64,000 nt of DNA from a virus (lineage: Duplodnaviria > Heunggongvirae > Uroviricota > Caudoviricetes), in the IMG/VR virus record IMGVR_UViG_3300024272_000027; one strand, given 5' to 3'. The position numbers were made by a program, and so were the translations under genes. Positions 3,737 to 43,454 of this stretch are shown here, piece after piece. Within the stretch, counting starts at the first letter, position 1, and each line of letters opens with the position of its first letter. Below the pieces are notes generated by a model. That model worked only from the letters and a program-made list of their open reading frames with translations, searched no databases and had not been told where the DNA came from.

Positions 3737-5362
3737 TTAACCTTTTATTGTGCCATAAATACGAGTTGAATTACCAGCTGTATCTTTTGCTTTATAATTG
3801 TAGTTGAATGACTCAGTAATAAACTTTCCTTCGTCTATTCTACCTTTTAGTGTGAAGGCTTTCTTACCTCTAGTAAGTTGTGTGTTTTCACCAATAAATC
3901 TGTATTTGCCTGATTTTGTAAAATCTTTTGCTTCAAAGATAAAAGATGTTTTCTTTTTAGCGCCTGAGTTAAAAGTGATAACACCTTCAAGTATTATCTT
4001 ATCATCTTTCATTGAACAATCCGTAGTTTTATATGATTGAACATTTTCATAAACTTTCTTAAGATAGCCTTCTCCAAGTCCGTCAAAAGTCTCATCATCA
4101 AACTCATCAAGCTCAACATCGCTAAATTCATCCTCAACAGCACCGTTTAATAATTCGTCTTCGTGCTCATCTGTTAAAGGGGTAATAACTTCAGCACCAT
4201 CTACAGGAGTCTCTTCAGCTGTTTTTGGTTCAGTAGTAACTGTAACTTTACCGCTATCATCAGTGTTAACATTAACAATGCTATCATCTGTTTCAACATT
4301 TACATTGTTAACTGATTCTTTAATAGATTTAGATTCATCAAGTGATGAATCATCAAAATCAAATACGATATTGACGTATGCGCGATTCCATTTTGCCTTA
4401 TTCATTCTATCGGCACTCTCAATATACTTAAATTTAGTTCCATCAGTAATTTTAATAATCTCGGCTTCAACTATATCGCGTTCTTTATTGCTATCTGCAA
4501 CTACTTCACAGCCTAGCTTTTTATAGGCATTTATAATAAAATCAACCTCAGGATATTTATCCTTTATAGGTGTAATTAAATTATTAAATTCCGAAGTAAC
4601 TGACTCAGATTCTTTAATAGATTTAGATTCATTAAGTGGTGTATCATCAACAGATTCCATCTTTGTTCCCATACCATCGCCTTTTAAAATGATGTTATAA
4701 AGGAACTGAGCTGCACGAGTACCTGGCATTTTAGCTAACTTAGCTTTGATATTTTGTAGATACCCTTTATTCTTAACTTCAGGTTCAATTGAATCTAAGA
4801 AACTAATTGCTGATGCTGTGTCATACACATTAGCTAATTCATCACTATGTGCAGCCATAACGTTACTTAGAGTACCGCCGATGCCTGACATTGGTCTGTC
4901 TAAAGTAGCAACTGCTTCCTGTAACGATTCTTCAACAACGTCGTCATCTTTATTATCAGTATCTGCAGGTTTAGCATCATCATCTGTATCAGTACTGTCT
5001 TCTGATTCTCCAGTTTTACCACCGAAAGCTGATACTTCACCCATAACCTTAAATCCGCCCACAGTGTAGCAGTACGGACATTCTTCTTCAACATTAGCTA
5101 ATGTCTGGTCGTCATTTAGTTCAATTTCTTCAAGGTCTTTAAACAACTTTGAATGACAAGTTGTACAATCAAGAATTACCTTTCCAACATATGAGTCTTC
5201 TAAATCTCCCTCTGTTTCAGCTTCGGGGTCGATAACTGAAATGTCATCCGCTAAGTCATCATTTTGCTCAAATTCGGCAAGTTTAGCGATACCATCATCT
5301 GAAACAGAGAAGGTATCTTCGTTTAAAGCATTCAATGCTCTAAAAGCTTCTGTTAACTTCAT
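3737..5362 (-). CDS. acidic Zn-binding modular protein, candidate prohead core/internal protein
   Basis: 541 aa; leader MKLTEAF..ALNE; CTTC...CPYC pairs; two ESKSIKES linkers. Confidence 0.7.
   Translation of the reverse strand: MKLTEAFRALNALNEDTFSVSDDGIAKLAEFEQNDDLADDISVIDPEAETEGDLEDSYVGKVILDCTTCHSKLFKDLEEIELNDDQTLANVEEECPYCYTVGGFKVMGEVSAFGGKTGESEDSTDTDDDAKPADTDNKDDDVVEESLQEAVATLDRPMSGIGGTLSNVMAAHSDELANVYDTASAISFLDSIEPEVKNKGYLQNIKAKLAKMPGTRAAQFLYNIILKGDGMGTKMESVDDTPLNESKSIKESESVTSEFNNLITPIKDKYPEVDFIINAYKKLGCEVVADSNKERDIVEAEIIKITDGTKFKYIESADRMNKAKWNRAYVNIVFDFDDSSLDESKSIKESVNNVNVETDDSIVNVNTDDSGKVTVTTEPKTAEETPVDGAEVITPLTDEHEDELLNGAVEDEFSDVELDEFDDETFDGLGEGYLKKVYENVQSYKTTDCSMKDDKIILEGVITFNSGAKKKTSFIFEAKDFTKSGKYRFIGENTQLTRGKKAFTLKGRIDEGKFITESFNYNYKAKDTAGNSTRIYGTIKG
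4314..4632. repeat. 25-bp perfect direct repeat (4314-4338, 4608-4632) flanking an in-frame 98-codon module
   Basis: gattctttaatagatttagattcat at both positions, 294 bp apart; encodes ESKSIKES on minus strand. Confidence 0.95.
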
Positions 5363-5410: not shown

Positions 5411-6121
5411 TTAGTCAAGAGGGTAAAGTAACTGAGTATTTTGCTGTAAGTATGTTCTTAACTCGCTTAACTCAGATTGACCTTCTTGTAACATTGCTGC
5501 TGCATCTGATGTCCAAAGTGCATTACTTTGTGTGAATCTTCCTCTAATACGTCCTAAGGTTATTTTAGTTAACGCTTTTGATAGACGCATTAAAACATCA
5601 ATCCAGAAGTCAGAAGTTATCTCACTAACATCATCATAGCGTGGAATGTATTCAATAGTTACTTGTGAGCCTGAATCCAGACGCGTGTTTATGTATAAAC
5701 GCTTTTCTGCATCCTCGTAGTACCAAGCTAAATCAGTAGACAATGTATTACTAACTTGCTGTATTGTACTCCAAGAAGCAAATCGGTTTACATAATCACT
5801 AAAATTATACATATTTCCTACACCTGATGTTAGTTGCCATAATCCTATCTGCATCGGGTCAATTCCTGACTCGGGTTGTTGACTTGTCGTACCAGAAGCT
5901 TGTGCTCTATATACACGAGCTATAGCATTTACTTTCTGTTTTGACATATCAATACACTTTTCATAAGGCACAGTAACAATTCTTGTTGAACAAATGTATC
6001 TTTGTAATTCTCTCAGTGCTGAATTAACTATCTGCATAATTGTTTCGTCACCGATTTCGAGTTCGAGAACACCACCAGTAACACTGAGTTTTATTTCATC
6101 GACATATGCACGCATATCCAT
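5411..6121 (-). CDS. neck protein (T4 gp13-like)
   Basis: 'LSVTGGVLELEI..TIMQIVNSALRELQRY', 'ALTKITLGRIRGRF'; directly downstream of MCP; start moved to MDMRAY (GAGGAG RBS). Confidence 0.65.
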   Translation of the reverse strand: MDMRAYVDEIKLSVTGGVLELEIGDETIMQIVNSALRELQRYICSTRIVTVPYEKCIDMSKQKVNAIARVYRAQASGTTSQQPESGIDPMQIGLWQLTSGVGNMYNFSDYVNRFASWSTIQQVSNTLSTDLAWYYEDAEKRLYINTRLDSGSQVTIEYIPRYDDVSEITSDFWIDVLMRLSKALTKITLGRIRGRFTQSNALWTSDAAAMLQEGQSELSELRTYLQQNTQLLYPLD

Positions 6122-6158
6122 ACAGTGATATCTCCTCTCATAATGATAGTTATATTCA

Positions 6159-6168
6159 TTTATACAAT
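6159..6168 (-). promoter_or_regulatory. putative late promoter motif ATTGTATAAA
   Basis: Upstream of gp13-like start, downstream of MCP terminator. Confidence 0.55.
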
Positions 6169-6185
6169 TAGTTGTTATATACAAA

Positions 6186-6219
6186 AATAATGCGTAGCAT
6201 ATTTCAGCTACGCATTATT
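6186..6219 (-). terminator. intrinsic terminator after major capsid gene
   Basis: aataatgcgtagc / gctacgcattatt 13-bp inverted repeat followed by T run on minus strand. Confidence 0.85.
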
Positions 6220-6239
6220 ATTATAAACTAAAACTTAAA

Positions 6240-7670
6240 CTAGTTAATTGTGTCAGCTGTGATTTCATTACCAGGGATGAATTCACCAGCAACAAGTAAC
6301 CAAGAATAATCTCCAACGTCAGGAGTTTCTGCACCTGTGTTAAGTTCCTCAATGTCAACTCTCTTACCATCAACAATCTTGTATGTTGAAAGAAGTTTCA
6401 TATCATACATTGTTGAGAAGCCTTGACTCATTGTACCATCAGCAAATCCAAGAAGCTGTGTAGGAACGATTGCCATATAAGGAGCATATACACCAGCTGA
6501 TGTCTGTAAATCAGAACCATTAACGCCGAAGAAGAATCTGTTCTCATCAATTGAAGGAGAAACAAATACTTTTAATCCATCAACAGTACCAGCAAGGTAA
6601 GGTCCATTGATTGTTGAAACAGAAGCTGCATTCCATCCAGGTAAATAAGGAAGAATTGTAAGGATGTTTGCACCAACTACCATATAGTTAGGAGCGAACT
6701 TCTGAGTTCTTTGATAGATGATTTTCTTAGCACGAGCAATGATTTCAGTAAATGTCTCATAGTACTGTGAACGACTTACGTAAGTACCATTACCATTTTT
6801 CTTAACGTGCTCATCATAGCTTTCAAATCTTAATGAACGGTCAAGTTCTGCACCCTTGTTAAGCATAAATACGCCTTCGGTATCAATCTCATAAGCAAGT
6901 TCGCCTTGAGCTTGAGTGCTTAACTGCTCACCGATGTCATAACCGTAATCAGTCTTAGCTTGGAAAGCAGCGATTTGGCTGTAGTAAACAGCAATTCTAC
7001 GAGCGTGTGCGTGTAATTGCATATAGCTCATTTTAGCTTTCAATGTAGGAATAGCGTTTCCGTTGTTACCTTCTTGAGGAATGATAACGTTGTCATAAGT
7101 ATAAGCAACTTTACCTTTTGAAGGTGCTTCATACTTACCATCTTCACCTGCTGTTAAAGGAGTGTAAGCAGTTGCACCGTCAGCACAGAATTTAACTGAG
7201 CCTGCAACTGGTTCCCAAGCAAATGCGATTGTTCCAGCTTCAACAGGTTCTACAATCTTATCAGATGTGTAGTTAACTCTGTCTTCAGTCATCTTAGGAT
7301 GTCTGTAAACGCCGTTGAATAAATCACCGTCTGTAACTCCACCTTTAGTTACACCAGCAGTATAACGTAGATATGTGATGTATCCAGTGATAGAGCTCAT
7401 TGGTTGAGTTAACATTAAATCTGGAAGAATTAAGTTAGGAAGTGCAACAGTTGAAACGTTTAAGCAAAATCTCTTGTAATCGCCAAGAGCGCTTCTTTGT
7501 GTAGCTGCACTGTTGTCAAATGCTTCGTTGATGAATTTGCTTGTATTGTTTAATACAGAAGCAATAAGAAGCTTTTTGTTAGCACTCATACGAGCACCAT
7601 TGTGTGACTTCTGATGAACAGATTCAGAAATAGAAAGTCTGTTCTTATAAGATTCTAATAAAGTAGCCAT
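6240..7670 (-). CDS. major capsid protein (T4 gp23-like)
   Basis: 476 aa; TQPMSSITGYITYLRY, HARRIAVYYSQ..QAKTDYGYDIGEQLSTQAQGELAYEIDTE, AGVYAPY match gp23-family motifs. Confidence 0.93.
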   Translation of the reverse strand: MATLLESYKNRLSISESVHQKSHNGARMSANKKLLIASVLNNTSKFINEAFDNSAATQRSALGDYKRFCLNVSTVALPNLILPDLMLTQPMSSITGYITYLRYTAGVTKGGVTDGDLFNGVYRHPKMTEDRVNYTSDKIVEPVEAGTIAFAWEPVAGSVKFCADGATAYTPLTAGEDGKYEAPSKGKVAYTYDNVIIPQEGNNGNAIPTLKAKMSYMQLHAHARRIAVYYSQIAAFQAKTDYGYDIGEQLSTQAQGELAYEIDTEGVFMLNKGAELDRSLRFESYDEHVKKNGNGTYVSRSQYYETFTEIIARAKKIIYQRTQKFAPNYMVVGANILTILPYLPGWNAASVSTINGPYLAGTVDGLKVFVSPSIDENRFFFGVNGSDLQTSAGVYAPYMAIVPTQLLGFADGTMSQGFSTMYDMKLLSTYKIVDGKRVDIEELNTGAETPDVGDYSWLLVAGEFIPGNEITADTIN

Positions 7671-7691: not shown

Positions 7692-9218
7692 TTAGTTAAT
7701 TAAATTAAATAGTGAACTATCAACTACATCATCAGGATTTGTAAATCTTTGAGTAGATGTGTCTTCTTTCAAAGTTACACGGCTAATATTTGCATTACCT
7801 AATTCAAATGGTAACTTGTTCATATTACGTTTATAACTTCTCAAACCCTCGCAAACAGAATCAATATCATCGAAAGAATATCCCTCGCTTAATCGGTTCT
7901 TTATTTCGTTTGCTGTGATTCCTAAGTTAAGAGCTTTACTGTGAATATAGCGGTCAACAGCTTCGGCAGCTTGCTTTCTATAAGACTCAACTAATTCATT
8001 ACTGCGACTTAACTTTTGTGCATACTGTGAATTCTTTATCTGAGAATCAGTCTTTAAAGACTCAAGTTCTTCTTTTAAAGCTTTCACTTCTGCTTGAGCA
8101 CTATTACGTGCTCTTTGAACGCTTTCATTTAACTTTTTGTTCTCAGCTTGTAGTTCTAAGATTCGTGTGTCACGCTGTGAAACACTTTCTTTTAACCCTA
8201 ACCTTGACTTACGTGCGGCTTGAAACTTGGTTTGATAAGATTCAATAATACCTTTACGTTCATCAGCTAAATTACTCACAGACTCAAGTTGCTCTTTCAT
8301 CGACTTAAGTTGATTACTTAAGGCTTGAGCTTTGCTTACTGACTCAGATAATCTCTTAACTGCGTCTTTCAACTTTGTGTTCTCTTCTTGTAGACGACTC
8401 TCTTTAGTATAACTAACTGACAGTTTTTCGTGAAGAGTAACAACCTGTCTCTGTAAGCTATGGTTTTCTTTTAAAGCTTCCTGAAGTTCGTTTACTAAAT
8501 TTGTTCCGTCATCGTCGGCTACGCCTTCTTCAACTTTCTCAGTTTCTTCTGTCTTTGTTTCATCAGAAGAGTCGCTATAATCAATATCAAGATTATCAAG
8601 TGTCTCGGTCATTATTTTCCTGTCTTCAACACTTGCTCTCTCTAATGATTCGCGTAAAGCTTTCTTAAAGTTAATTTTATTTGTGTCTAATGATTCTGCT
8701 AACTGTAATCTTGCATCTTTACAAGCGGGAAGTAGCACTAAATCAAAAGCATTGAATGAATAAGTATCCTCATCAACAATTTCTTCGTTACCATCAAAAT
8801 AAGTATCGCCAGAACCTCTTGATGAAATACCAAGATTAAATCCATACTTTGCTAACGCATAAGCAATACGTCCACAAGGAGTATCGATTATATCAAAATA
8901 GCCAACTAATTTACCATCAGGCCCTTTAGTGGGAGGCTCAGGCATCATAATTGCTATCTTTTCTGAATTTGTTTCATCTCTGTCTGTTGGGTGGTCAAGT
9001 TCACCTGGAACACCGCCCTGAGCAAACATTTCTTTTGTTAAAGGATTATCAAAAACCTTCTCCCATAATGATTCAGTATAACGTCTTTCATTACGTGTAG
9101 GTTTAATTACATCAGCGATTGGCCCATATAAACGACCTAGAATACCTCTACGCTGTTTTTCTTCGGGTGATAACTCTTTAAACTTCAGTTCAACATTTTC
9201 TGTAAAACTCTCTAACAT
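7692..9218 (-). CDS. prohead protease (T4 gp21-like) fused to coiled-coil scaffold
   Basis: GELDHP, LGISSRGSG, FDLV..P motifs in first ~170 aa; ~300-aa coiled coil after. Confidence 0.9.
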   Translation of the reverse strand: MLESFTENVELKFKELSPEEKQRRGILGRLYGPIADVIKPTRNERRYTESLWEKVFDNPLTKEMFAQGGVPGELDHPTDRDETNSEKIAIMMPEPPTKGPDGKLVGYFDIIDTPCGRIAYALAKYGFNLGISSRGSGDTYFDGNEEIVDEDTYSFNAFDLVLLPACKDARLQLAESLDTNKINFKKALRESLERASVEDRKIMTETLDNLDIDYSDSSDETKTEETEKVEEGVADDDGTNLVNELQEALKENHSLQRQVVTLHEKLSVSYTKESRLQEENTKLKDAVKRLSESVSKAQALSNQLKSMKEQLESVSNLADERKGIIESYQTKFQAARKSRLGLKESVSQRDTRILELQAENKKLNESVQRARNSAQAEVKALKEELESLKTDSQIKNSQYAQKLSRSNELVESYRKQAAEAVDRYIHSKALNLGITANEIKNRLSEGYSFDDIDSVCEGLRSYKRNMNKLPFELGNANISRVTLKEDTSTQRFTNPDDVVDSSLFNLIN

Positions 9219-23800: not shown

Positions 23801-25726
23801 CATAATGCTTTGACTTGTTTTAATATGCACATCAGGTTTGTTTTGTTCATAGTATTTATCAGAACTACAAGGCTCATACAGCTCCTCGCTATCACGAAGC
23901 TCTTGTAACACATTCCAATCAACATTATCAGAAACTAATGCTATACTATCAGCAAGTCCTGTAAAAGTTTCTAAAGTGCTTTCTTTATCTTGTAGCATAG
24001 CATCGCAATTGTCTTTGAAACAGTTTGTTAATCGAGGCGCTATAGAAGCTTTACTGATTATTGTTATTGGATATGTGCCGTTGTTAGTATGTGCTGTATA
24101 GTTTCCTCCTGACTGTGAGATAGCGTTACATAAAGTGAAAACATTCTCAAAAGGTATACGACATACTTGCCCGTCATAATCATCATCTCTATGATGAAAA
24201 TGAGATGTATTATTGATATACACATAACCTTCTTTATCAATTCCGTATATCAACGTTGCGTGACCTTGTGTACTTCCAGCGCCTCCAGGTCCGCATAGCA
24301 TAGCATAACAGCCGTTTTTCAATGCATTTATGAAATATAACAGATAATCTTCCCAGTTAGAGCTGTCTTGAAGATAACTACTTACTACATCAACATTCTC
24401 GAAATCGCTGTCAGCAGGAGGTCTATAATCACCGTGATTAAGTCCTAGTATCTCACACTTAAGACCTATACGATTAGCAACAAATGTTGAGAAATAATTA
24501 GTATTAAATACAACTGTAGGACCGTATGTCTTATGGTCGTAGTATCTAAACTTAGAGTTACTATTTTTGTAACCACTATACCACTTATGTGTTACCTTAC
24601 TTTCGTCTCCATATACGGGGTCAGAGGCAGCCCATTCATTGATAAGACGCGGAATACCCCATTCGTCTCTGCCACCAGTTATACGAACTATATAATCTTG
24701 AATCTGTTTCGGGCACTGTACAATAGATTTTCCAAAAGGTTGTAGTAATCCAATATAAGCCCCCAGTATTGAGTGTAGCGTACAACCTGTGCTAGTATCA
24801 ATAGGAGAAGGGAAATATATCTCCTGATTTGCCAAATCTCCTGCATAATCTTTGTTAAAATAGTTATTAAAACTGAAATCAGATAAATACTTTGAGTATT
24901 TCTTAGTTACTGGGTCATAATCACCCCAGTTAAACCAATCAATGTTACTTATGTCAGCAGACACGTTGTCTGACCACGGCTCATCGTCTTGCGGGTAAGA
25001 ATACAATGCAGGATGTATTATAGCGTTATCAATATTGTTTGCACATAAGTCTAACCAACAATCTACAAACGCTTTATTTGACCATAAACTTGCAACACGG
25101 CTTGCGTTAGTGGTAACTTTTGAGCGCTCGGAGTCGCTTAATCTGTAGGCTGACTGATTTAAAGCATATCGTTCTATTGAGGTTATCGTGCTGTGTTTAA
25201 AATCTTCTAAACGTTCAGTCATAAACAAAGCTGATTCGCCAATTGTTGTACAACTGGGCACGTCAAGTGTAATCAATTCAGCACATCCATACAAGAGTCC
25301 TTTGCTAAGGACTCTGAGTTTATTCATCTGTAGATACTTAAGTTCTGCACAACATTTAAAAACATTGACTCCTACGGTAGTTACATTATTAAAAGTAACT
25401 CTCTGTAAAGATGTATTGTCAAAAGCGTTGTCGTTGATAGTAGTTATACTATCTGTGTTCTGGACATCCACTAGTTGATAAGCTTCAGAGCAAAAATATT
25501 TAGGAATAGTCGTCACAGTGTTCGGTAGTACGATAGACACTATTCTAGTATTCTGTTTAAACATATTTTCAGCTAGAGTGGTTACCTCAGTGTCATTTAC
25601 AGTAGAAGGTATGACGATTGTGGTAGGAAGTTGTTCGTACTTGTCCCCTGTAGGTTTATATTCATCTTTTAAACTAAGGAGTCCAGCAGTTGTTATATTA
25701 AAATATTTACCATATATGTCATTCAT
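20801..25726 (-). CDS. 1641-aa tail-associated multidomain protein: BspA LRR, C39-like peptidase, LRR, S8 subtilase, LamG-like
   Basis: N-terminal BspA repeats; TGCTLHS/GHATLIYGID/INN; SVDC/DHGE/QGNDG/GTSFATP; C-terminal IHNRPLTEDEI. Confidence 0.75.
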   Translation of the reverse strand: MNDIYGKYFNITTAGLLSLKDEYKPTGDKYEQLPTTIVIPSTVNDTEVTTLAENMFKQNTRIVSIVLPNTVTTIPKYFCSEAYQLVDVQNTDSITTINDNAFDNTSLQRVTFNNVTTVGVNVFKCCAELKYLQMNKLRVLSKGLLYGCAELITLDVPSCTTIGESALFMTERLEDFKHSTITSIERYALNQSAYRLSDSERSKVTTNASRVASLWSNKAFVDCWLDLCANNIDNAIIHPALYSYPQDDEPWSDNVSADISNIDWFNWGDYDPVTKKYSKYLSDFSFNNYFNKDYAGDLANQEIYFPSPIDTSTGCTLHSILGAYIGLLQPFGKSIVQCPKQIQDYIVRITGGRDEWGIPRLINEWAASDPVYGDESKVTHKWYSGYKNSNSKFRYYDHKTYGPTVVFNTNYFSTFVANRIGLKCEILGLNHGDYRPPADSDFENVDVVSSYLQDSSNWEDYLLYFINALKNGCYAMLCGPGGAGSTQGHATLIYGIDKEGYVYINNTSHFHHRDDDYDGQVCRIPFENVFTLCNAISQSGGNYTAHTNNGTYPITIISKASIAPRLTNCFKDNCDAMLQDKESTLETFTGLADSIALVSDNVDWNVLQELRDSEELYEPCSSDKYYEQNKPDVHIKTSQSIMSFKACGTGSITVRTHSGYNSYTLTDEPQTITVDNHTLTAVNEDFPQPLYTIFINNAENITELDLHDTGVTELHFNRQNGINKLLIYNNDISELNVAECRNLQYLHMFNNPICSDIDKMRDIIKQLPDRNNKAFGSIILYDWVNLGLCGYRKALNNTFYHDKEYKYPLKKCENEIYRDIASVEHPWYQYIGGRFVELSDYNRMIMLRRQLEGLDKSTWTYTNKEGSIFKNWVFGSAIQYNEEAWKYCDTPFRNAHIADVWETAEKGEGVGITSVDCNNWIHPSVNFNRVHAFGWVGWEPDGWSTTGGVAPVPVFTSEDEIDTNIKNVLCPWLEPGCYKVFSDIIIIPTPDDERKLSTLKREDGTEEAFKLLTSDHGESCYSFMGDRGITSITNTTYGISPESRYYLLSTASASKNQSVAWHESTQADWTALVARGCGVYVSDLSNASQVYYNNNCHPQSNITCVNMDDINLFTRSLGQQFVGDVKTPSYQFQNELNSQSLQRIFAFNAQGNDGDGFPYTTDSPSNTATSYIMSENCRFVSSISLDKQFSAFSTADVSKQPHSYTYSCYGESVRYYNTALKSIVCGSGTSFATPLHTAMTAILWVIYSKIHNLYRLNSDSEWRISSSYESRKILEKSYKHHIDPLKGQARLAVGNGTVDCMYYNTLSYPTVSNTKLNINSDNNLSVGNVIQLEKTCCVHPSEAESDGFFIGNNITATPLVYNQQYFIPLRSGTHTLSCYNNNLNIIPDKNTLSGFTNDTTSDSFISSTTFEVSAGELNGECITDGLIYNKSITAAAAQTPISEFNKCNNDLGWTVSFALNPKGAGAGSNGTAEMLKTDYFYLKFEVILTNRVLQERKGELWLRMRDAVMGREDCDYTYLAMDKHTQNCNHSYTVDEVVYPYSYDSAGGYLYQCRNIKSVITLRKRANDNILDFFINGQYITSHRTLQDLSGLPYTGGIIPCANVSNATKIVNCISICIHNRPLTEDEIIQQMLYMHKTYCS

Positions 25727-31015: not shown

Positions 31016-33490
31016 CTATTCACCTGACGCCCACTTCTTATAAGCTTTTTCGTAATCAGGATTTCCTTTGTTGTCGCGATATAATTGGTCGATAGTTGCT
31101 GTTATTGCTTCACCGTCACCCTTTAATTCTTTTTCAATTGTTTTGAATGACTGATAAACTTCTTCCCAAGATTCTTTCATAACGTTGTCATCCTCCTCAA
31201 TATTATTATTTGGAGAACTGTTAGAATTATTTAAGTCTTCTTCAACGATATCGGTAACTCCACCAATTTGTTGTTGACCTTCTATCTCGCCAGTATCGAT
31301 TGCTTTTGCATTTGGTGATACTGTTTTAAGAAGTTCTTGTAGCTGTCCAACGTGTTTGTTTTCTTCGGTGTTGATTTCATCAACTACAGTTGCTATATCT
31401 TCAAAGCCTTCTGCTCTAGCACTAACAGCTATGTCATTGTACATCTGAATTGTTTTAAACTCATCTTGTACTGCTGTGTTAAGCAAGGAAGCTAATCCTG
31501 ACTCAGGACCTTCAGTAGGCCCAGCTAAAGTGTCAGTAACAACGTCTGTTACATCTTCGTGTAAACTTTCATTAGTCATTGTGTAACTACTAATAATTGA
31601 TTCAAGTTTAGCATAGAAATCTCTGCATATCTTTGTAATGTATGCTGCCTTGTGTGAAGGTAACACATCTAGCATCTCTAAAACTTTAGCACAAATGTCA
31701 GGTACTTCCACATCAAGATATCTACTTGCAGTGTATTTATCGTCATCAAAGTCTTCTCTGAATAGCGATTCATTTAATGTAAACTTTGATTCAACGCTTT
31801 CATTTACTGCATTTGAAATCGGTTCATAAGCCATTACCTCTTCAGGATAAGTAGGATTTTCACTATCACCTGTAAGACTACTTATTGCATAATGGTCAGC
31901 CAATATGTCTTCAGCCGCATCACCGCTTGTACCTTCAGGCAGTTTAAATCTTCCTTCCTTAGTAAAGTTATCAGTAGCGTCTTTAAGGAATTCATAAGCT
32001 TTATCAAATGATTCTTGTGAGTATCTTAGTGACTTTTTAATAGGTTTGTCCTCTGATAAAGGTCTTATAAATCTTTCAGGAGCTTCGTCACCAAATTCAT
32101 CATCTTGTTCTGCTTGGATATCAGAAATGTATCTATTACACTCATCTTCAGAACCTTCAAATTCGATTTGGTCCATACCATCTTGAGTGAAGTATACACA
32201 GTGAGTAGATTTAGATTCATCAAGTAATTTATTATCTCTTGCATACTGCATTAAATCATCAGTACTGATATTACCGAATGGTGTAGTAACATAATCACCA
32301 TATCTGCTAGCAATATCATCATATGCTCTAGTGCGTTTAGCAATGTACCCTTTTGGAGGAACTGCTTCAGGATTACTAGAAAGATACTTATCTATTCTTT
32401 TAATAACTCCTGTACGATTATCCCAACCATCAATTCCTTCACTCAGTTTACTTGCGTCAAAGCCAAGATAGTTTACCATAGTTGATTTAGCTTCATCTTC
32501 GGATACATTTAACTCTTTTGAAATAGCTTTCATTTCGTGTTGAGCTTCTGTATCCCAATTACCTGAAACTGGTTTTGAAGTTGAGTACCTGTCAGCAATC
32601 TTATCAACGATTGCTTTCTGTTCGTCAGATAAAGATTCAGTTACTTTGTTTTTACTGTGAATATTCTCTAGAGTGCTAACATATAAGTTATATAGGTCTT
32701 CAGTAGGAGTCTTACCATTCTGTTTCATAAAGTTTGAAAACTCTTCGTAAGAATCACAAGCAACACCCATTTCATACATCTCTTTTGCATCCTGTTTTAC
32801 TTTATCTTCAACAGACGACTCAACAGTTGATGAATTAGATTGAGCAGATGGTGGATACACATAACCTTTCTGTCCTGCGTACTCCCATATAACTATACAT
32901 TCATTTCCTTCATTATCTTTTGTGAGATTCCAAACGTCAGTATCAACTTCAGTTTTACCTGTATCTTCATTAGTCCAAGTAGTTTCACATTCGATACTGT
33001 TAGGATATTCACCGCCGCTTGCATTATGAATAGCTACAACTTTTGAAGTGTAGTCGCCACCGTACAGTCCGCTAAATGTGAAAGTGTCACCAACTTTAAA
33101 ATGTGCGTTAGCTGACTCTTTAAGTTTATTATGTGCTTCAATATTCTTTATTTCAATATTGTCGCCATACTTTGCTTTCATCTGAGCAATAGCTGACTCT
33201 TCTCTATAATCATAACAGTAATCAGCAAATGTTTTACCATCTTGCTCAATAGTTATTTTATATCCGCCTTCATTTAATGATGCTTTACCTGCCCAACTGT
33301 CAATTGTTGCTTTAGCATCTTTAAGAGTAGCAAGACCTTCTTCTTTTACGGCTCTTTTAACCTTTTCAGGTGTTCCTTCATAAGAGTAGATATCCCAACC
33401 ATCGCCTGCTCTATTTTTAAGAATTACATAACCATTGTAAAATTCTTTTTGGAAGCCTTCTGATGCTTCATTTAATTTTCTAATTTTCAT
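31016..33490 (-). CDS. 824-aa acidic modular protein, candidate head-cargo polyprotein
   Basis: Leader MKIRKLNE; internal sites SLNE, KLKE, KLSE, LLDESKS, PLSE, TLNE, SLHE; ferritin-like helical segment near C-terminus (tentative). Confidence 0.75.
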   Translation of the reverse strand: MKIRKLNEASEGFQKEFYNGYVILKNRAGDGWDIYSYEGTPEKVKRAVKEEGLATLKDAKATIDSWAGKASLNEGGYKITIEQDGKTFADYCYDYREESAIAQMKAKYGDNIEIKNIEAHNKLKESANAHFKVGDTFTFSGLYGGDYTSKVVAIHNASGGEYPNSIECETTWTNEDTGKTEVDTDVWNLTKDNEGNECIVIWEYAGQKGYVYPPSAQSNSSTVESSVEDKVKQDAKEMYEMGVACDSYEEFSNFMKQNGKTPTEDLYNLYVSTLENIHSKNKVTESLSDEQKAIVDKIADRYSTSKPVSGNWDTEAQHEMKAISKELNVSEDEAKSTMVNYLGFDASKLSEGIDGWDNRTGVIKRIDKYLSSNPEAVPPKGYIAKRTRAYDDIASRYGDYVTTPFGNISTDDLMQYARDNKLLDESKSTHCVYFTQDGMDQIEFEGSEDECNRYISDIQAEQDDEFGDEAPERFIRPLSEDKPIKKSLRYSQESFDKAYEFLKDATDNFTKEGRFKLPEGTSGDAAEDILADHYAISSLTGDSENPTYPEEVMAYEPISNAVNESVESKFTLNESLFREDFDDDKYTASRYLDVEVPDICAKVLEMLDVLPSHKAAYITKICRDFYAKLESIISSYTMTNESLHEDVTDVVTDTLAGPTEGPESGLASLLNTAVQDEFKTIQMYNDIAVSARAEGFEDIATVVDEINTEENKHVGQLQELLKTVSPNAKAIDTGEIEGQQQIGGVTDIVEEDLNNSNSSPNNNIEEDDNVMKESWEEVYQSFKTIEKELKGDGEAITATIDQLYRDNKGNPDYEKAYKKWASGE

Positions 33491-33603
33491 CTATAGCTCT
33501 CCTCTGTTCTTTGAGATAATTTGTCAACATATGTACAATAGGTTTCAGTAGAGGACTGTGTTTCAAGTCCTCTATCAAAATCTTCTACTAACTTAAATTT
33601 CAT
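33487..33603 (-). CDS. 38-aa ORF missing from ORF track with leader MKFKLVE
   Basis: Hand translation MKFKLVEDFDRGLETQSSTETYCTYVDKLSQRTEESYR; ATGA overlaps at both ends. Confidence 0.6.
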   Translation of the reverse strand: MKFKLVEDFDRGLETQSSTETYCTYVDKLSQRTEESYR

Positions 33604-34301
33604 ATACTCAACTCCTCTGATGCTAATTCAACTCGCCTGTCTTTAAGAGCATCGAGTAGTCCGTTGTTTCTTATTTGTTTGAAGATAAGATTACCTTTTC
33701 CAAACTCTCCATCCACAACTAATGAATTTCTTCTCAACAGATATAATTCATCAATTATGTTTAATATATCTTCTTCAGTTCCTATCGATAATATCTGATT
33801 TATTCTATCAGTAAAATCACTTAACTCAGGTTCTAATTCAACATCAACAGCAGAAAGTTTTACAGGTTCTTTTATCCACATATCTTTTAACACTGAATAT
33901 ATACCATTTGATTGTGGAGAAGATTTAACATCTTCAACATATAATTCAACATCATATCCACCATAAGTAATATCATACTTATTGTTAAAGTTTGCTTTGA
34001 AAGCATTCATAGCGGCTTGAACTAACTCTTCAGGATAACCGTATTGTTCAAAGTTAGTTATAATATGTATATCTATGTCACTTTTATCATTATAATTATA
34101 TGACGCATTAGAACCGACTAAGTTTATATCTAAAACAACAATCGGTATATCTAAAGTGGTTTGAAATTCATCAACAAGATGTAATATCTTATCTTTCACT
34201 TCAGGCTTAAGTTTATTATTAAACCACAATACAGGATTTAATTCATCCTGTATTGTGACTAACTCTTCATTTATATAAGATTCAAATAACTTAAACTTCA
34301 T
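33600..34301 (-). CDS. Pol-beta-superfamily nucleotidyltransferase with leader MKFKLFE..INE
   Basis: GSNASYNYNDKSDIDIHII (GS...DxD) and YDVELYV third acidic strand. Confidence 0.8.
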   Translation of the reverse strand: MKFKLFESYINEELVTIQDELNPVLWFNNKLKPEVKDKILHLVDEFQTTLDIPIVVLDINLVGSNASYNYNDKSDIDIHIITNFEQYGYPEELVQAAMNAFKANFNNKYDITYGGYDVELYVEDVKSSPQSNGIYSVLKDMWIKEPVKLSAVDVELEPELSDFTDRINQILSIGTEEDILNIIDELYLLRRNSLVVDGEFGKGNLIFKQIRNNGLLDALKDRRVELASEELSI

Positions 34302-37300
34302 TACCTTTAGCCTCTTTAGCTAAACGAGCTTCTGTTTCCTCAGGAGTCTCAACTCCATCTGGCATATCATACTTTGTGTCTCCACCATAGATAGAAGCGA
34401 GTTCATCGTCATCCCACTCATCTTCTTCAAACCCTTCTTTCTTAGAAGGTTTGTTTAAAAGTGGAATATCGTATGTCGAACGAATATAAGCAGTAGGATA
34501 TCTGTCTTTAACTGCTTTATAATCATCAAGTGCAACAGCTCTTTCTGCGTATTGAGTTGCTGCTTTCATATCAGTTCCAAAGTTGTCATCGGTAGCATTA
34601 TAATAAAGATTTAAACCATCTTCTTTTGCTATAATGATATACTTTTCAACACCTTCTTTAAGAGTACCATTAGGACATCCTTCAGTCTCACAATAGCCAT
34701 TATCATTTAACTTCTTACCACACTCAGTGCAGTGAGTTAAATCTTTATCAACTGATTCCATATATTGTGAAGCATCTTCTGCGGATACTTCAACTGTTAT
34801 AGCATCCGCATAGATGAGAAGCTTAGCACAAACTGTGCCGTCTTCATTTACATATTCTGTAACATTAGGTTCGTCTCCGTGCTGAGTAACTTCCTTAAAT
34901 CCCTCTGATTGAATATCATAGTGAACTAAAGTAGCATCAGAATCATCTTCGCTGTTATTAAAGTAAATCTGATATACGTCAACATACTTTGTTATCTTAT
35001 TAGCACCATACTCTTTAAGTGAATTGAATAATCTATTAGCTACTGCTTCAAGATTACTATCAACATCTTCAGTAATCATCGGAGAATATCTTTCAAATTC
35101 TTTATCAAGTATTCCTTTTAATCTATCGCTAAATCCATATTTGTCAAGGTTCCCTTTATCTTTGATTACGTCATCAATAGATAACCCTTTGAGTTCTTCG
35201 GCGCCTTCTGTATCTTTCGGATTTAATTTTAGATACCATTCATCAGCTGGTTGAATACCTTCTTTAATAGATTCAGTAGCCGTACGAGTTCTACCATTTA
35301 TTCTATAACTATTAGGTATTCGTATGTTATCTGCATTTATATATTGACTATAACTGATGATTTCATCCTCATCAAAATAATCAACTAAGTCTCTACCGAA
35401 AACATATTTATTATCGTTGATATAGAATTTACTATCAGGAAGTCTTGTACTTAACATATCAGCGTTTGATTTAGATACTCCGAAATCATCCAATCCGTCT
35501 TCTGTGATAGATTTAGATTCACTCGCTGGAAACTCTTCAAACCAATCATCGTGCTCACGACCGAACGGGATTTCAACTTGAACACCACTGCTCAGTTCTT
35601 TAAACAATACACCATAATAAGAACCACCATAAGTGCTGTGGATAGTTTGTTTACCTATAGCTTCAAACTTAGTGCCCTTGGGGAATTCTATATTGATATT
35701 TCTATATCGCTCATCAGGATGAGAAGAGTTATAATGCACAAATTGAGTAGCATTCTTAAATACTTTTTCTGCCTCAAAATGAAGGAACATAATCTTTCCT
35801 GTATAGTATAAAAACTCTGTCTTCAAGGTCCATATAGTACCAGGTTTAAATAATGAGTATAAGTATTCGCTGTAACTACTACTAGACTCGGTCGATTCTT
35901 TAATAGATTTAGATTCGTTAGTAGTCTCATAATCTTTATCTAGGAAACCAAATTTCTTTAGTACGGATACACTCTCATCCTCATCTAAACGAGTAAGCAG
36001 TTTGAGAATAATTTTACATACATCTTTTTTAGAGCTGTATTTAGAATCATCTGCAAGTCCTTCTTCAAGTGCAGCAAGAAGCCATTCTTTCCAACTGTCT
36101 GTTCCATCAGTCTCAGCATCTAAAGGCTGCCAATTACATTCATCTACTATCTCAGACATAACATCATCTAAATTAGCTGGGTGAGCATTTTGTACTAAAT
36201 ATTTACACATTTGAGTTATCTCTTCACCAGGCAGGTAATAGATATTATCGTGCATACTATATAGTACAGTATCTAGATGTGCATCTTCTTTAATAGATTT
36301 TGATTCATTTATGTCGTCGTTCTCCCAATCATTAACTTTTGACTGTAAGAACTCTTGAGCTTCTTTAACTGTATCACAAGGACCCCAATCAATAAATCCT
36401 GTATCAGTATCAACAACAAAGAATCCGCTAATAGCAGTACTATCTTCATCGTCTTCGTCTTCACGACGATAAGCCCACCATACTGCCCAGTTGTCAAAAT
36501 CTAAATGAACTGTGTCACCACATTGTTTAAACCACATCCAAGTGTAACCATCTTCAATGAACTGATTACCAGCGGTTACTGTAGTGTTGTCTTCATCCCA
36601 ATCTTCCATATCATATAAGATGTCTGTGTCATCACTTTCATTAAGTGTTAACTTTTCGCTCATATATCCGCTTGGAGTATATTTTCTGATAATAGCATCT
36701 GTATCATCCATATCTATTTTCTTAACAATAGCACTCATTGGATATTCGTGTTGTCTTTCTCCCCACGCCCAACCTAAGAAGGTTCTGCCGTGATAGAGTT
36801 CTTTTTCCACTTTAACAGGAATGATGTTTGGGGTTCCATTTTTCTTTGTATTAAGATTAACTTCTACCCATTCACCTTTATCATAACCTTCTGTGAGCAT
36901 TTCATTCATTTTCTTTAAACGTACTTCACGAGGAAGCATTCTTAGATTATAGTACTTAACTGCTCTTGCCTTTTCTTCGTCAGTGAGTTCTTTTTCGTAC
37001 TCACGTGCTTTATCCATATTAACACCATACTGATATGTTATGGCAGCAAGTAGTTGTTCTTCATCAGAACCATTTCTATCTATGCGGTCATATTCGTCAT
37101 CGTCAGGCATATACCCTTCACGCATATCAGTTACTTTCATTTTAACTGGATTAGCAACGCCAGATTTCTTCAAACTATCAAAAGCTGCTTGAGCGTCTTT
37201 ATCATTGTAGTATATTCTACCAGACTCATCATCACCAACAAAATACTCCTCTTTAGCATCTTCAGTTAATGACTCATTTTTAGCTAACGCTATATCTATT

Positions 37301-38589
37301 GCATTAGTACCTCTATCCAGTATATCTACAGCTGTGTCATCTGAAAGAATACCATCATTATTTTTACTAATTATAGTATCAGCTGAACGCACTAATTTTC
37401 CATATGAGTTGCTCACGGATTTCCAAGGCGGTAGTGCTTCATCCAATTCAGCTTTGTTTTCGTGCGGAGTGCGCCCTATCAAAGATTCATTAAGCATATC
37501 AGCTTTCTTATGAATAACATCAAGAACAGCATCAACTGTGCCATCTGTATACTGCTGATTATCAATATGGTCTTTGAAGATTCTATATACTTGTCTCAAG
37601 TCTTCCATTGATGCACAATCATATATTTTGTTTGTCCACTGATTAACAGCGTCTTCGTCAACTATATCTTGTGACTGGTCGTTACGAATAAATGCACGAG
37701 CAATACCTGAAGTAACTGGTTCAAAGTATGCAAAGTGGTCAAGTGCTGCTACAATAGGATTAAGTTTGTCGCAAAGTTCCATTAAGTCATCATAACCTAA
37801 CTCTGCTCTAACTTCAACTTGAATCATATCATCAGCTGTATCTTTTATTTCAACAGCTGTATAAGCTTCTATTTCATCAGCTTCATATCCAACCTCTGCC
37901 ATAAAAGCATTAACAACTTCTTTAATCTGTGGTTCTAAGTTTGAAGTGTCAACATCTTCTGTTAAACTTTCATCAACTTCATCATCTGATTGACCTAGAT
38001 GATTGTAGTCAACAAAATTCATAATATCACTAACGATATATTCATAAGAAGAATGACAATAAGGCCCTTTACCATTTATATAGTAAGTGAGCTCTTCCCA
38101 GTCAGTATCAAAAGTAACATCAACTGTAACACCATTGTAGGTTACTTTATACTCTGTTCCTGAACCCTGAACATCATCAATGAAAAAACTATCTTTAGCA
38201 TAGTGATTCATTGCATAATCAATGTTGTCTAAACGACCTTGTAAAACTTCAGGGTCAATATCTTCTTTAAGTTCTTTTAACTGTAAGTCCTCATCTTCAA
38301 ACTTGTCCATCAAGTTCCAAAGTGTGCGGTCACCACCATCGTTGATTTCATCAATAATTTTCATATCGCTAACATCATCGTCACCAAGTGCTTCTGTAAT
38401 AGCATCACACTTAGAAGATAAGAATTTATTGATTGTAGCAGGATGGTCATAAGCATCAATGTACTTTACTAACTTTTGTTTATCGTCGTCATCTAACTTA
38501 CAAGCTTCATATAAAGTTGTTAAGTCATAACGAGCGTCAGTCTTTCTGTCAAGTTCTAGTAAAGCTTCGCGAATGTTTATTTGTTTCAT
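34291..38589 (-). CDS. 1432-aa acidic modular protein, candidate head-cargo polyprotein
   Basis: Leader MKQINIRE; repeated linkers ESLTE, EMLTE, TLNE, ESKSIKE (x2), ESKSITE, ESIKE, MITE, TLKE; Zn ribbon near C-terminus. Confidence 0.8.
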   Translation of the reverse strand: MKQINIREALLELDRKTDARYDLTTLYEACKLDDDDKQKLVKYIDAYDHPATINKFLSSKCDAITEALGDDDVSDMKIIDEINDGGDRTLWNLMDKFEDEDLQLKELKEDIDPEVLQGRLDNIDYAMNHYAKDSFFIDDVQGSGTEYKVTYNGVTVDVTFDTDWEELTYYINGKGPYCHSSYEYIVSDIMNFVDYNHLGQSDDEVDESLTEDVDTSNLEPQIKEVVNAFMAEVGYEADEIEAYTAVEIKDTADDMIQVEVRAELGYDDLMELCDKLNPIVAALDHFAYFEPVTSGIARAFIRNDQSQDIVDEDAVNQWTNKIYDCASMEDLRQVYRIFKDHIDNQQYTDGTVDAVLDVIHKKADMLNESLIGRTPHENKAELDEALPPWKSVSNSYGKLVRSADTIISKNNDGILSDDTAVDILDRGTNAIDIALAKNESLTEDAKEEYFVGDDESGRIYYNDKDAQAAFDSLKKSGVANPVKMKVTDMREGYMPDDDEYDRIDRNGSDEEQLLAAITYQYGVNMDKAREYEKELTDEEKARAVKYYNLRMLPREVRLKKMNEMLTEGYDKGEWVEVNLNTKKNGTPNIIPVKVEKELYHGRTFLGWAWGERQHEYPMSAIVKKIDMDDTDAIIRKYTPSGYMSEKLTLNESDDTDILYDMEDWDEDNTTVTAGNQFIEDGYTWMWFKQCGDTVHLDFDNWAVWWAYRREDEDDEDSTAISGFFVVDTDTGFIDWGPCDTVKEAQEFLQSKVNDWENDDINESKSIKEDAHLDTVLYSMHDNIYYLPGEEITQMCKYLVQNAHPANLDDVMSEIVDECNWQPLDAETDGTDSWKEWLLAALEEGLADDSKYSSKKDVCKIILKLLTRLDEDESVSVLKKFGFLDKDYETTNESKSIKESTESSSSYSEYLYSLFKPGTIWTLKTEFLYYTGKIMFLHFEAEKVFKNATQFVHYNSSHPDERYRNINIEFPKGTKFEAIGKQTIHSTYGGSYYGVLFKELSSGVQVEIPFGREHDDWFEEFPASESKSITEDGLDDFGVSKSNADMLSTRLPDSKFYINDNKYVFGRDLVDYFDEDEIISYSQYINADNIRIPNSYRINGRTRTATESIKEGIQPADEWYLKLNPKDTEGAEELKGLSIDDVIKDKGNLDKYGFSDRLKGILDKEFERYSPMITEDVDSNLEAVANRLFNSLKEYGANKITKYVDVYQIYFNNSEDDSDATLVHYDIQSEGFKEVTQHGDEPNVTEYVNEDGTVCAKLLIYADAITVEVSAEDASQYMESVDKDLTHCTECGKKLNDNGYCETEGCPNGTLKEGVEKYIIIAKEDGLNLYYNATDDNFGTDMKAATQYAERAVALDDYKAVKDRYPTAYIRSTYDIPLLNKPSKKEGFEEDEWDDDELASIYGGDTKYDMPDGVETPEETEARLAKEAKGNEV
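35260..36308. repeat. dispersed ESKSIKE linker repeat, four copies (35260-35273 partial, 35500-35521, 35894-35916, 36286-36308)
   Basis: Core ttctttaatagatttagattc with 0-2 mismatches to copies at 4314/4608; spacings 240, 396, 390 nt (all in frame). Confidence 0.9.
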
Positions 38590-38679: not shown

Positions 38680-38689
38680 TAAATACAAT
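38680..38689 (-). promoter_or_regulatory. putative late promoter motif ATTGTATTTA
   Basis: Upstream of the 1432-aa/NTase/824-aa operon. Confidence 0.55.
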
Positions 38690-41620: not shown

Positions 41621-42319
41621 TTAAGCCTCCTTGGTTTGCTGTTTGTTTAACTTACTCCAAGTATACCATCCATAGATACAATTGATTGTCCAAGCTATAT
41701 ACATTGCAACCATCGACCAGTTACCCGCTACGAACCACAACTTAATACAAATGATATCAATTAGTAGCCACCATATCCATTGTTCTCTGTAACGCTTAAT
41801 CATAAGTAACTGAGCGAACACAGCCATAACATTTGTAGCAGCGTCTGTAAATGCCTGTGCACTACCAATAGCATCAAGAGCTAATCCTGTAATATATGTA
41901 GCAAGTATTGTTCCTAAGATAGATAATATCCAAGCTTTAGCACTAAATCGCTTAGCCGTAACATCTTGTGTGCCATCATCATTCTTAGTCATTGTTCTCT
42001 TCCATAAGAAGATACCGATAATCATTGTGACTAGATAGAATATGTTTTCAATAACTTCACCGTAGAACATATTCTGCCACGCTAATATCAGATAAGATAC
42101 TGTCTGAACAAATCCGATATAGTAGAACGATATCTTCCCTTTAGCACAGAGTACTGTAGATATCACTCCAGAGATACCTGATATAATTCCTAACGGGGTA
42201 TCAGGTGCGATAATGAATACTACTATTTGAAGTAGTAACATTGATATTAGATATAGCTTTTCAAAGACGCTATATCCTGTCCACATTTCATTCTTTAACC
42301 ATTTCAAGGCCTTTGCCAT
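41621..42319 (-). CDS. pnuC: nicotinamide riboside transporter PnuC
   Basis: 232-aa polytopic membrane protein; FTDAATNVMAVFAQLLM..RYREQWIWWLLID motif; adjacent to nadR. Confidence 0.9.
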   Translation of the reverse strand: MAKALKWLKNEMWTGYSVFEKLYLISMLLLQIVVFIIAPDTPLGIISGISGVISTVLCAKGKISFYYIGFVQTVSYLILAWQNMFYGEVIENIFYLVTMIIGIFLWKRTMTKNDDGTQDVTAKRFSAKAWILSILGTILATYITGLALDAIGSAQAFTDAATNVMAVFAQLLMIKRYREQWIWWLLIDIICIKLWFVAGNWSMVAMYIAWTINCIYGWYTWSKLNKQQTKEA

Positions 42320-43454
42320 TTCTCTCCAACTCCCTTACATCATCAACAATCTTTTTAAAATTATTCCAATAACCTCCATCGAGGATTGTAACCTTATCCC
42401 AGTTGCCTGACTCTTTGATATTCTTACAGAGTAAATCAAACAACTCTTGGCGCTCTTTCATTCCGGAGTGAGCCATATACCTTTGCCCATCATCAACAAA
42501 TGTTCCGTGAGGACACAGTAGATATATCTTATCCCATCGACACTTAGCAGTTATTTCATCAGCTACGACAGCAACCTTTTCATAATCTTCTTGTGTAAGA
42601 ACACAACTGTCATCTTTAGCATAATACTCAGCATACATCTTAGTAACCATCGAGTCACTATCCGCAAAGAATATTCCTTTGTTAGCATCTGAGTTAATTA
42701 ACTTCTTATTCAAATCATACTGACCTTGAAGGAATGCTATAAAGTCAGTAGCATCAAATTCCCAATCGCCTAAACAACTTTCAGTTATGTAATCTCTTGC
42801 CCATTCATAACTGAAAGGAGCATTGAAATACTTACCAAGGTCAGCTGTCATAACTGTTTTGCCCTCTGATGCTGTACCACATATAAGTATGTTAGTACTG
42901 AATACTCGCTTAAAAGGAAATGTAATCTTATCCCAATACTTGATAGGATTACTTCTAATAAGAGTTCCACTAATAGGATTATCAGCTTTACGGTCAACTA
43001 ATACGGCTTTCTCATTCCACATATCAAGTAAGTCATCATAGTATGATTGGTCGCCCACATACCAAACTCTTTCAGGTCTACTAAGGCCTAAGTCCTCATT
43101 GTCATAACCGAATTTGTTAGTAGCCTTTTTAAATATGTTCTTGAACTCTTTCATCCATCCTTCCCAACCGTTTGGATAAGAATCAAGTTTAAGTTCAGTA
43201 TCGTTGATAGCATATACAGCTACCAAGTCATCGTCTGCAAAGAACTCACGAACATATCTGTATCGCTTGTTGTGCGGCATAAGTGGTTCACCTTTGTCTC
43301 CATCATAACCACAAACAATAACAATACATCCAGCATCGTTCTCCTTCTTAGCTTGCATAATCAAGTCTAAGTGTCCTTGATGTAGCGGTGCAAACGAACC
43401 GAACACTACACCAACTGTTTTACCGCTTAGGCACTTCTGATGATAATGTAACAT
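42288..43454 (-). CDS. nadR: NadR-type NMN adenylyltransferase / ribosylnicotinamide kinase (no HTH)
   Basis: FGSFAPLHQGH (HxGH) N-domain; ICGTASEGKT Walker A, EWARDY, FADSD kinase domain. Confidence 0.9.
   Translation of the reverse strand: MLHYHQKCLSGKTVGVVFGSFAPLHQGHLDLIMQAKKENDAGCIVIVCGYDGDKGEPLMPHNKRYRYVREFFADDDLVAVYAINDTELKLDSYPNGWEGWMKEFKNIFKKATNKFGYDNEDLGLSRPERVWYVGDQSYYDDLLDMWNEKAVLVDRKADNPISGTLIRSNPIKYWDKITFPFKRVFSTNILICGTASEGKTVMTADLGKYFNAPFSYEWARDYITESCLGDWEFDATDFIAFLQGQYDLNKKLINSDANKGIFFADSDSMVTKMYAEYYAKDDSCVLTQEDYEKVAVVADEITAKCRWDKIYLLCPHGTFVDDGQRYMAHSGMKERQELFDLLCKNIKESGNWDKVTILDGGYWNNFKKIVDDVRELERNGKGLEMVKE

Follow-up and report, generated by a model that had tools for sequence, protein, structure and literature searches.

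A 1432-residue acidic polyprotein of a T4-type phage, a probable carrier of exchangeable small proteins into the virus head

We analysed a window of 64,000 nucleotides (nt), the whole stretch of DNA studied from the virus record IMGVR_UViG_3300024272_000027, in which one very long open reading frame (ORF), here called gene A, encodes an acidic protein of 1432 amino acids (aa). The source record is a 161,507-nt virus, an uncultured myovirus with a CheckV completeness of 96%; it was found in animal faeces, and pieces 90-99% identical to it occur in bovine gut runs. Its head genes form a T4-type module composed of a portal, an S77 protease fused to a scaffold tail and a gp23-type capsid protein (PF07230, PF03420/phrog_207 and PF07068). 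A T4-type head with a gp21-like S77 protease, the setting proper to Ip-type head proteins, is therefore present, and the His, Ser and Asp motifs of the protease are intact. The nearest cultured capsid proteins belong to Bacillus, Listeria and Streptococcus phages, at only 24-29% identity, and the lysin is an amidase_3/glucosaminidase, which together suggest a Gram-positive host. A homologue of the core module of gene A (L133) lies on a 142-kb contig of a Bacteroidaceae bin; that contig may well come from a phage and have been sorted into the bin, and we drew no conclusion on the host from it.

The gene A product consists of Asp and Glu to 22% and has a mass of 163 kDa. Its ORF is unbroken within one contig of a sequencing run (possibly the source run), which together with syntenic intact homologues rules out an assembly artefact. 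The initial annotation, made from the letters alone, had described an acidic polyprotein of small domains separated by about a dozen sites of the prohead-protease type. The ORF and all the linkers that it quoted are present, but its count was too low: we find about 15 joints, which delimit 16 segments of ~5-18 kDa with isoelectric points (pI) of 4.1-6.2. T4 gp21 cleaves by the rule I/L-x-E (PMC12991175). The bare motif L/I/M-x-E is modestly enriched in gene A (30 occurrences compared with 21.2 in shuffles, p=0.03), while its refined form, followed by S, A, G or D, occurs 20 times where 6.3 are expected (p≤0.002), a figure to be read with the fact that this set of P1′ residues was picked on the same data. 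No other ORF of the 161.5-kb genome is as rich in such sites as gene A. The refined motif is also enriched in the scaffold tail of the protease (11 sites compared with 2.5 expected), at the capsid N-terminus and in the genes at 31016-33490 and 3737-5362, and shows no enrichment in the portal, terminase, tail or metabolic genes of the genome.

AlphaFold was run on residues 1-768 with a 56-row alignment, residues 769-1432 being modelled separately. The first model, with a mean predicted local distance difference test (pLDDT) score of 74.7 and a predicted template modelling (pTM) score of 0.35, is made of compact confident blocks, and its low-confidence stretches (65-109, 198-210, 373-401, 428-445, 491-495, 561-570, 639-667 and 762-768) are the linker positions. 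The protein is thus predicted as separate domains and not as one continuous fold; a fibre can be dismissed, there being neither a continuous fold in the model nor any repeated Ig-like or fibre fold. The second half was modelled poorly (pLDDT 49) because it has few homologues, and several segments of gene A appear disordered. Among the blocks singled out in the initial annotation, the Trp-rich one (residues 652-768, 8 Trp), the helical one (769-898, six helices) and the Cys4 ribbon (near 1286-1305) are found again, whereas the beta-rich block (899-1030) could not be confirmed in so poor a model. No relatedness was detectable between the alpha/beta modules 212-312 and 1175-1281. The features are collected in Table 1, where selection is given as the ratio of nonsynonymous to synonymous substitution rates (dN/dS) and CTS denotes the capsid-targeting sequence of T4 (as defined in PMC9026906).

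Table 1. Gene A, its parts and other features of the window
Feature	Coordinates	Strand	Remarks
Gene A, acidic polyprotein, 1432 aa	34291..38589	-	same position in relatives, 1041-1535 aa with differing module sets
N-terminal propeptide, 8 residues, basic, ends I-R-E then A	38566..38589	-	resembles the T4 CTS; putative targeting peptide
Conserved 4-helix N-terminal domain, aa 9-66	38392..38565	-	53 homologues; pLDDT 79-88; dN/dS 0.06; family hallmark
Acidic disordered spacer aa 67-109 and alpha/beta module aa 110-211	37957..38391	-	
Core module aa 212-368, ferredoxin-like alpha/beta and 3-helix bundle	37486..37956	-	58 homologues, most widespread
Module aa 369-443	37261..37485	-	this phage only; 213-nt in-frame insert, N-E then S on both sides
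Small alpha/beta module aa 444-491 and accessory helical module aa 492-567	36889..37260	-	the latter a 216-nt in-frame insert
SH3/Tudor-like beta module aa 568-651	36637..36888	-	fold match Z 6.3, generic
Trp-rich acidic beta/alpha module aa 652-768	36286..36636	-	37 homologues; dN/dS 0.07; position varies
Hypervariable block, modules aa 769-898, 899-1030, 1031-1110	35260..36306	-	between four E-S-K-S-I-K/T-E joints
Accessory helical aa 1111-1174, alpha/beta aa 1175-1281, accessory Cys4 zinc-ribbon aa 1282-1312	34654..35259	-	
Module aa 1313-1385 and conserved acidic peptide aa 1386-1432	34294..34653	-	
ATTGTAT, candidate phage late promoter element	38683..38689	-	~100 nt upstream of the gene A start codon
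Gene B, second polyprotein, 824 aa	31016..33490	-	CTS-like start, 11 sites, ferritin-like module
Nucleotidyltransferase-like gene (Pol-beta-type)	33600..34301	-	CTS-like start; absent or replaced in relatives
Portal	9890-11770		PF07230
S77 prohead protease fused to coiled-coil scaffold tail	7692..9218	-	PF03420, phrog_207
gp23-type major capsid protein	6240..7670	-	PF07068; three refined-motif sites within the first 50 residues
Head-region gene, 13 sites	3737..5362	-	98-aa module between two perfect 21-nt joint copies

Comparison with relatives shows that gene A is an open cassette array: at the linkers, and with the reading frame kept, modules have been gained, lost, put into another order or transferred from one gene to another. 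There are 51 long homologues, the nine closest being 70-95% identical in shared blocks, and despite such close relatives no single alignment spans more than 28% of the gene A query. Even phages that are about 90% identical differ by whole modules, whose gain or loss at linkers keeps the reading frame. Residues 366-437 and 490-562 are inserts with a linker at both ends; the module at 369-443 is absent from all nine close relatives, with the same skip in other runs, and indel skips in general recur as joints in other sequencing runs. Conversely, this phage is without a zinc-binding module of 186 nt which relatives have behind Glu207. Altogether five gene A modules, among them the three of the hypervariable block, are missing from 9 of 9 close relatives, which have other modules at the same joints. 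The alpha/beta module at residues 110-211 is missing from one group of homologues (P0010-P0020) and has a relative within a clade-2 polyprotein; the core module, with a pLDDT of 88-98 and generic fold matches only, occurs in clade-2 polyproteins too. The order also varies: some homologues have the Trp-rich module ahead of the core module, and in some the C-terminal acidic peptide directly follows the N-terminal domain. Modules change genes as well, 568-651 standing right behind a CTS-like 8-mer in gene-B homologues (P0057-P0060).

These exchanges fall at the sites. In three groups of relatives, 59%, 65% and 81% of the breakpoints are no more than 8 aa away from a match to L/I-x-E, the T4 rule taken a priori, compared with 24-33% expected, the events being shared among proteins and so not independent. 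Within gene A itself, 10 of 12 breakpoints are near the refined motif (p=8e-5) and 9 of 12 near the T4 rule (p=0.002). Neither of the two refuting outcomes that were examined occurred: the model has no continuous fold, and sites are denser at domain boundaries than inside domains. All modules tested, accessory ones included, are under purifying selection with a dN/dS of 0.05-0.20. An automatic splitting of 91 proteins, which is rough, yielded 694 segments in 269 clusters.

At the DNA level the four E-S-K-S-I-K/T-E joints are 21-nt direct repeats (family D1, at 36286-36306, 35896-35916, 35500-35520 and 35260-35280). They are identical at 19-20 of 21 nt, where the 99th percentile of the null is 14, and are conserved at silent positions too; two further perfect copies are found in the gene at 3737-5362. 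The repeat would help recombination in the hypervariable block. Most other joints share 8-9 of 12 nt, which is near the null, yet still encode L/I/M-x-E followed by a small residue, often doubled. Since these joints have short microhomology only, selection on the peptide must matter too.

A search with the core module led to a sister group of phages of 130-250 kb that possess homologous modules without an excess of L-x-E. The joints of their polyproteins read I/V-x-A/S followed by A/S instead, and so do their scaffolds. In the L-x-E group, the scaffold tails of nine proteases contain 4-10 L/I/M-x-E motifs (0.8-2.0 expected) and 0-2 of the form I/V-x-A/S-A/S, whereas the sister-group protease tails contain 4-11 of the latter (~2 expected) and 0-3 of the former; sister-group capsid propeptides carry the I/V-x-A/S-A/S motif as well. 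This motif was read off the cargo first and the scaffolds were checked afterwards. The cargo motif agrees with the scaffold-tail motif in all 22 genomes that have a cargo protein of at least 400 aa, although on a protease tree the switch is a single change (support 99/97), so that the agreement represents one contrast and not 22. A mere DNA joint would need no such tracking of the scaffold motif, and the linkers thereby point to the protease. The cultured outgroups Bacillus phage HSE3 and Listeria phage LIS04 have L-x-E-rich tails (12 sites in HSE3 compared with 3.3 expected), and for this reason the sequences suggest that the Ala/Ser form is derived. The sister-group S77 proteases (L019-L021, L105-L131) would then be T4-type prohead proteases whose P1 specificity has apparently shifted, with Ala/Ser in place of Glu. 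With module gain and loss at the sites, domain-wise folding and this agreement of motifs, both the polyprotein architecture and its connection to the phage's own prohead protease, as first annotated, are supported, and more strongly than the letters alone allowed.

The start of gene A has the I/L-x-E form of a targeting peptide, with Glu8 invariant in 30 homologues, and does not match an actual T4 CTS sequence. The late-type promoter that had been noticed upstream is only partly borne out. The T4 late motif TATAAATA is absent upstream of gene A and a T4 promoter of this kind is rejected; ATTGTAT, which is specific to the phage and shared with structural genes, is present. This heptamer occurs in 14 of 22 intergenic gaps of the structural region and in 3 of 59 elsewhere, with a p of 8e-8 computed on the same data from which the motif was chosen by eye, and it is kept upstream in five relatives (L001-L005). 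Followed by an AT-rich stretch, as at 38683-38689 and in 13 other structural-region gaps, it looks like the late promoter of this phage group. A scan for sigma-70 promoters gave chance level, and contigs from RNA runs overlap part of gene A but are uninformative on transcription.

What the modules do was approached by similarity searches. Neither the gene A protein nor its single modules gave a usable match in Pfam, PHROGs or PADLOC, nor did the family modules yield anything usable for it in NCBIfam. PDB sequence searches with profiles of the two best-conserved modules, the Trp-rich one among them, found no match, and ESM Atlas feature searches gave none that was usable. Foldseek (PDB and viral), VIA wide and Atlas searches, made with whole-half models and thus under-testing single domains, returned only generic ferredoxin-like, three-helix, Tudor-like and helical-bundle matches in addition to two uncharacterised gut-phage proteins. 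Structure prediction and fold search, which the initial annotation had proposed per segment, thus indicated separate domains in residues 1-768 and gave no anti-defence match. One lead concerns module 769-892 (35914-36285), an unreliably modelled six-helix bundle (pLDDT 50-65) without homologues, whose CARD/pyrin resemblance rests on VIA Z scores of 5.5-6.1 to PYD/CARD chains, inside the chance range for helical bundles and with no Foldseek support. CARD-like domains are known to be relevant on the side of the phage (PMC10312443). Because no module of gene A matched a known family in Pfam, PHROGs or PADLOC, or a solved structure, the label of anti-defence or host-takeover effectors has no direct support.

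Gene A does not stand alone; the exchangeable modules and the neighbouring genes of the same system both go beyond the first description. The C-terminal part of gene B is fused to gene A in another phage group. Homologues of the ferritin/rubrerythrin-like module of gene B match encapsulin-cargo ferritin models, and it could be an iron-binding protein in the phage head. Next to the nucleotidyltransferase-like gene, positions 33490-33600 hold a remnant of the start of an alternative gene for that locus. The head-region genes at 1971-3725 and 3737-5362 have CTS-like starts as well. The 98-aa module of the latter recurs with 76% identity in a gene-B homologue (P0058), and its position between perfect 21-nt joints shows that a conserved head-region gene also accepts cassettes. 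In the wider family of 265 modules the only named ones are ferritin-like, class I methyltransferase and weak zinc-ribbon matches. The methyltransferase of this pool also exists on its own, encoded by a 181-aa gene with a textbook T4 CTS in front, and the same module occurs in podovirus-type proteins of 1600-3600 aa and in both kinds of polyprotein (instances L070, L075, L078, L084, L086, L093, L102 at 5965-6525, and L072, L085, L091). Its distribution fits a virion-delivered cargo and makes it a candidate for a widespread injected protein, with no direct bearing on the gene A ORF. Further features are a gene of 1641 aa in a variable tail-fibre region (20801-25726), which has leucine-rich repeats of the BspA type and matches subtilase weakly; a PnuC-like transporter and a NadR-like gene for salvage of NAD precursors (41621-43454), present in most close relatives and missing in one (L004); and, in some sister-group phages, a long gene after the capsid gene that looks like a homing endonuclease (L015:2446-3843, L018:3-1400).

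Taken together, we think that this single gene probably supplies the virus head with small proteins, the set of which can change. Gene A would be made late, considering that it opens the structural block and has ATTGTAT upstream. The N-terminal 8-mer, perhaps together with the conserved domain behind it, would take the precursor into the prohead core, as the T4 precedent suggests. At head maturation the S77 protease would then cut after Glu at L/I/M-x-E followed by a small residue, as it must do when it processes the capsid propeptide and the scaffold tail to which it is fused. In view of the motif evidence, such cutting of the gene A product at its linkers appears highly likely. It should release ~15 separately folded proteins of 5-18 kDa, an outcome strongly constrained by the comparative data. 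By analogy with T4 we regard it as reasonably likely that these pieces are retained in the head and ejected, being small enough to exit with the DNA like IPI-III of T4. The modules might then target host defence or host machinery within minutes of the start of infection; that several of them counter host defence is a tentative idea, drawn from their variability, the purifying selection and the T4 precedent. The chain as a whole, from late synthesis to early action, is the explanation that we favour with moderate confidence.

A number of points weigh against it, besides the choice of the P1′ residues on the test data and the single phylogenetic contrast behind the motif switch. Motif matches at Glu28, Glu312 and Glu843 lie inside confident domains, so that not every site can be cut. 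The internal proteins of T4 are basic (PMC9026906), unlike the gene A modules, which being acidic would be harder to pack among DNA. In phage SPN3US, cuts by the prohead protease mostly remove propeptides that get degraded (PMC10052503). No homologue of gene A is encoded by cultured phages; HSE3 and LIS04 share the head gene order, and up to 20 kb from their capsid genes a large gene of this kind is not seen. Finally, no family or fold match of any module implies a defence system as target.

We considered three other readings. The same protease might cut the protein in the cytoplasm late in infection, so that it is never packaged and either releases late-acting factors or serves as a decoy substrate. 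Acidic modules would suit the cytoplasm better than a DNA-filled head, and in T4 a host protein of the cytoplasm that has an L-P-E loop can be a target of gp21 (PMC12991175). Against this, the basic start runs into an I/L-x-E that never varies at residue 8, which is how a packaging signal looks, gene B and neighbours of the capsid protein begin in the same way, and fusion would bring late-acting factors no gain; we consider the cytoplasmic route unlikely. Slightly less likely still is a core or filler protein comparable to T4 gp22, gp67 or gp68, which would be cut by the prohead protease without being delivered, its acidic fragments leaving the head or merely occupying it. The strong acidity and disorder of segments would agree with such a role, and T4 does cut core proteins at multiple sites (PMC9026906). 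The role of scaffold is already held by the coiled-coil tail of the protease, however, and gene A, with globular domains of variable presence, does not resemble a prohead scaffold or core protein, which is conserved, essential, for the most part coiled-coil and cut to small peptides. Nor would one expect a core component to vary by whole folded domains between 90%-identical phages, to have accessory domains under purifying selection or to have homologues with enzyme modules (methyltransferase, ferritin-like). Equally improbable, in our estimate, is that gene A acts uncut as a polyvalent or surface-display protein whose linkers are scars of gene fusion or recombination joints: the 21-nt repeats, conserved at silent positions, would suffice for shuffling without proteolysis, fusion of CTS-bearing genes leaves L-x-E scars and some polyvalent proteins travel uncut (PMC5512222), but the joints with near-null nucleotide identity keep the motif nonetheless, often doubled, the linker motif switches with that of the scaffold tail in the sister group, and repeated Ig-like or fibre folds are lacking.

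Delivery of protease-released modules from the head, if correct, would have consequences beyond this locus. To our knowledge, no phage tools other than injected proteins take effect ahead of the first phage gene expression, and known examples are few. Gene A and its relatives would provide hundreds of small candidate effectors, with exact boundaries taken from sequence alone and ready to be synthesised and screened against bacterial defence systems; polyprotein processing by the head protease would be an added delivery strategy in phage biology; and a class of huge unannotated acidic ORFs would be explained. A T4-type prohead protease lineage would apparently have exchanged Glu for Ala/Ser as the residue after which it cuts, and its substrates would have followed. 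A more speculative extension, which we rate as possible rather than probable, is that phages with T4-type heads generally possess a "cargo magazine", a capsid-addressed recombining array of effectors that are released by the protease through linkers co-evolving with its specificity. The module clusters would in that case be an injected library for anti-defence and host takeover in Gram-positive gut hosts, and the more than 200 clusters from ~90 homologues a pre-sorted collection of injected proteins. Our literature search, which covered few subscription papers, found no description of cassette polyproteins processed by a prohead protease.

The closest known systems each share part of this picture. 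In T4, IPI, IPII, IPIII and Alt have their CTS removed by gp21, and Ip1-3 inhibit type IV restriction enzymes (PMC9026906, PMC12373910). Gene A is similar in its T4-type head with an S77 protease, in a short basic N-terminal peptide ending in I/L-x-E, in predicted pieces of the size of internal proteins and in being a hypervariable cargo locus. In T4, however, each cargo has one small gene and one cut, whereas here ~15 domains share one targeting peptide in a multidomain acidic precursor, which is not the small, basic, single-domain product of its own gene that defines an Ip; no module is homologous to an internal protein or Alt by the searches run. Giant phages of the phiKZ type offer a second comparison through their ejection proteins (SPN3US gp245, cut at A-x-E), since they also have a gp21-related protease, a lineage-specific three-residue motif and several sites per substrate (PMC5694885, PMC10052503). 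The multiple sites known there, by contrast, sit in propeptides that are destroyed, and the mature products are single proteins and not rows of swapped domains. Gene A is also reminiscent of the shuffling at PeSLs in T4-like phages, where short conserved repeats are exchange points for accessory modules (PMC4122927); PeSLs are promoter-terminator elements between whole genes, while the repeat described here is in frame inside one ORF and encodes a putative cut site. Polyvalent proteins are mosaic and predicted to be packaged and delivered with the DNA, and proteolytic release of their domains and cassette-like recombination have been suggested (PMC5512222). Like those described by Iyer et al. 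(2017), gene A is a large mosaic of many unrelated domains, polyvalent proteins having 2-15 per polypeptide, with an architecture that differs among relatives. In theirs the protease put forward is an in-cis metallopeptidase (MPTase), and the domains belong to named families such as MuF, LPD, ArdC-N and ART (PMC5512222), whereas gene A is without a Pfam domain (no match to MPTase, MuF, LPD, ArdC-N, ART or DarA-N in the protein or its modules) and without an in-cis protease, and its joints carry the motif of the prohead protease. Gene A thus works like IPI-III and Alt of T4 multiplied within one ORF and combined with the mosaic build of polyvalent proteins, and it is a strict member of neither class.

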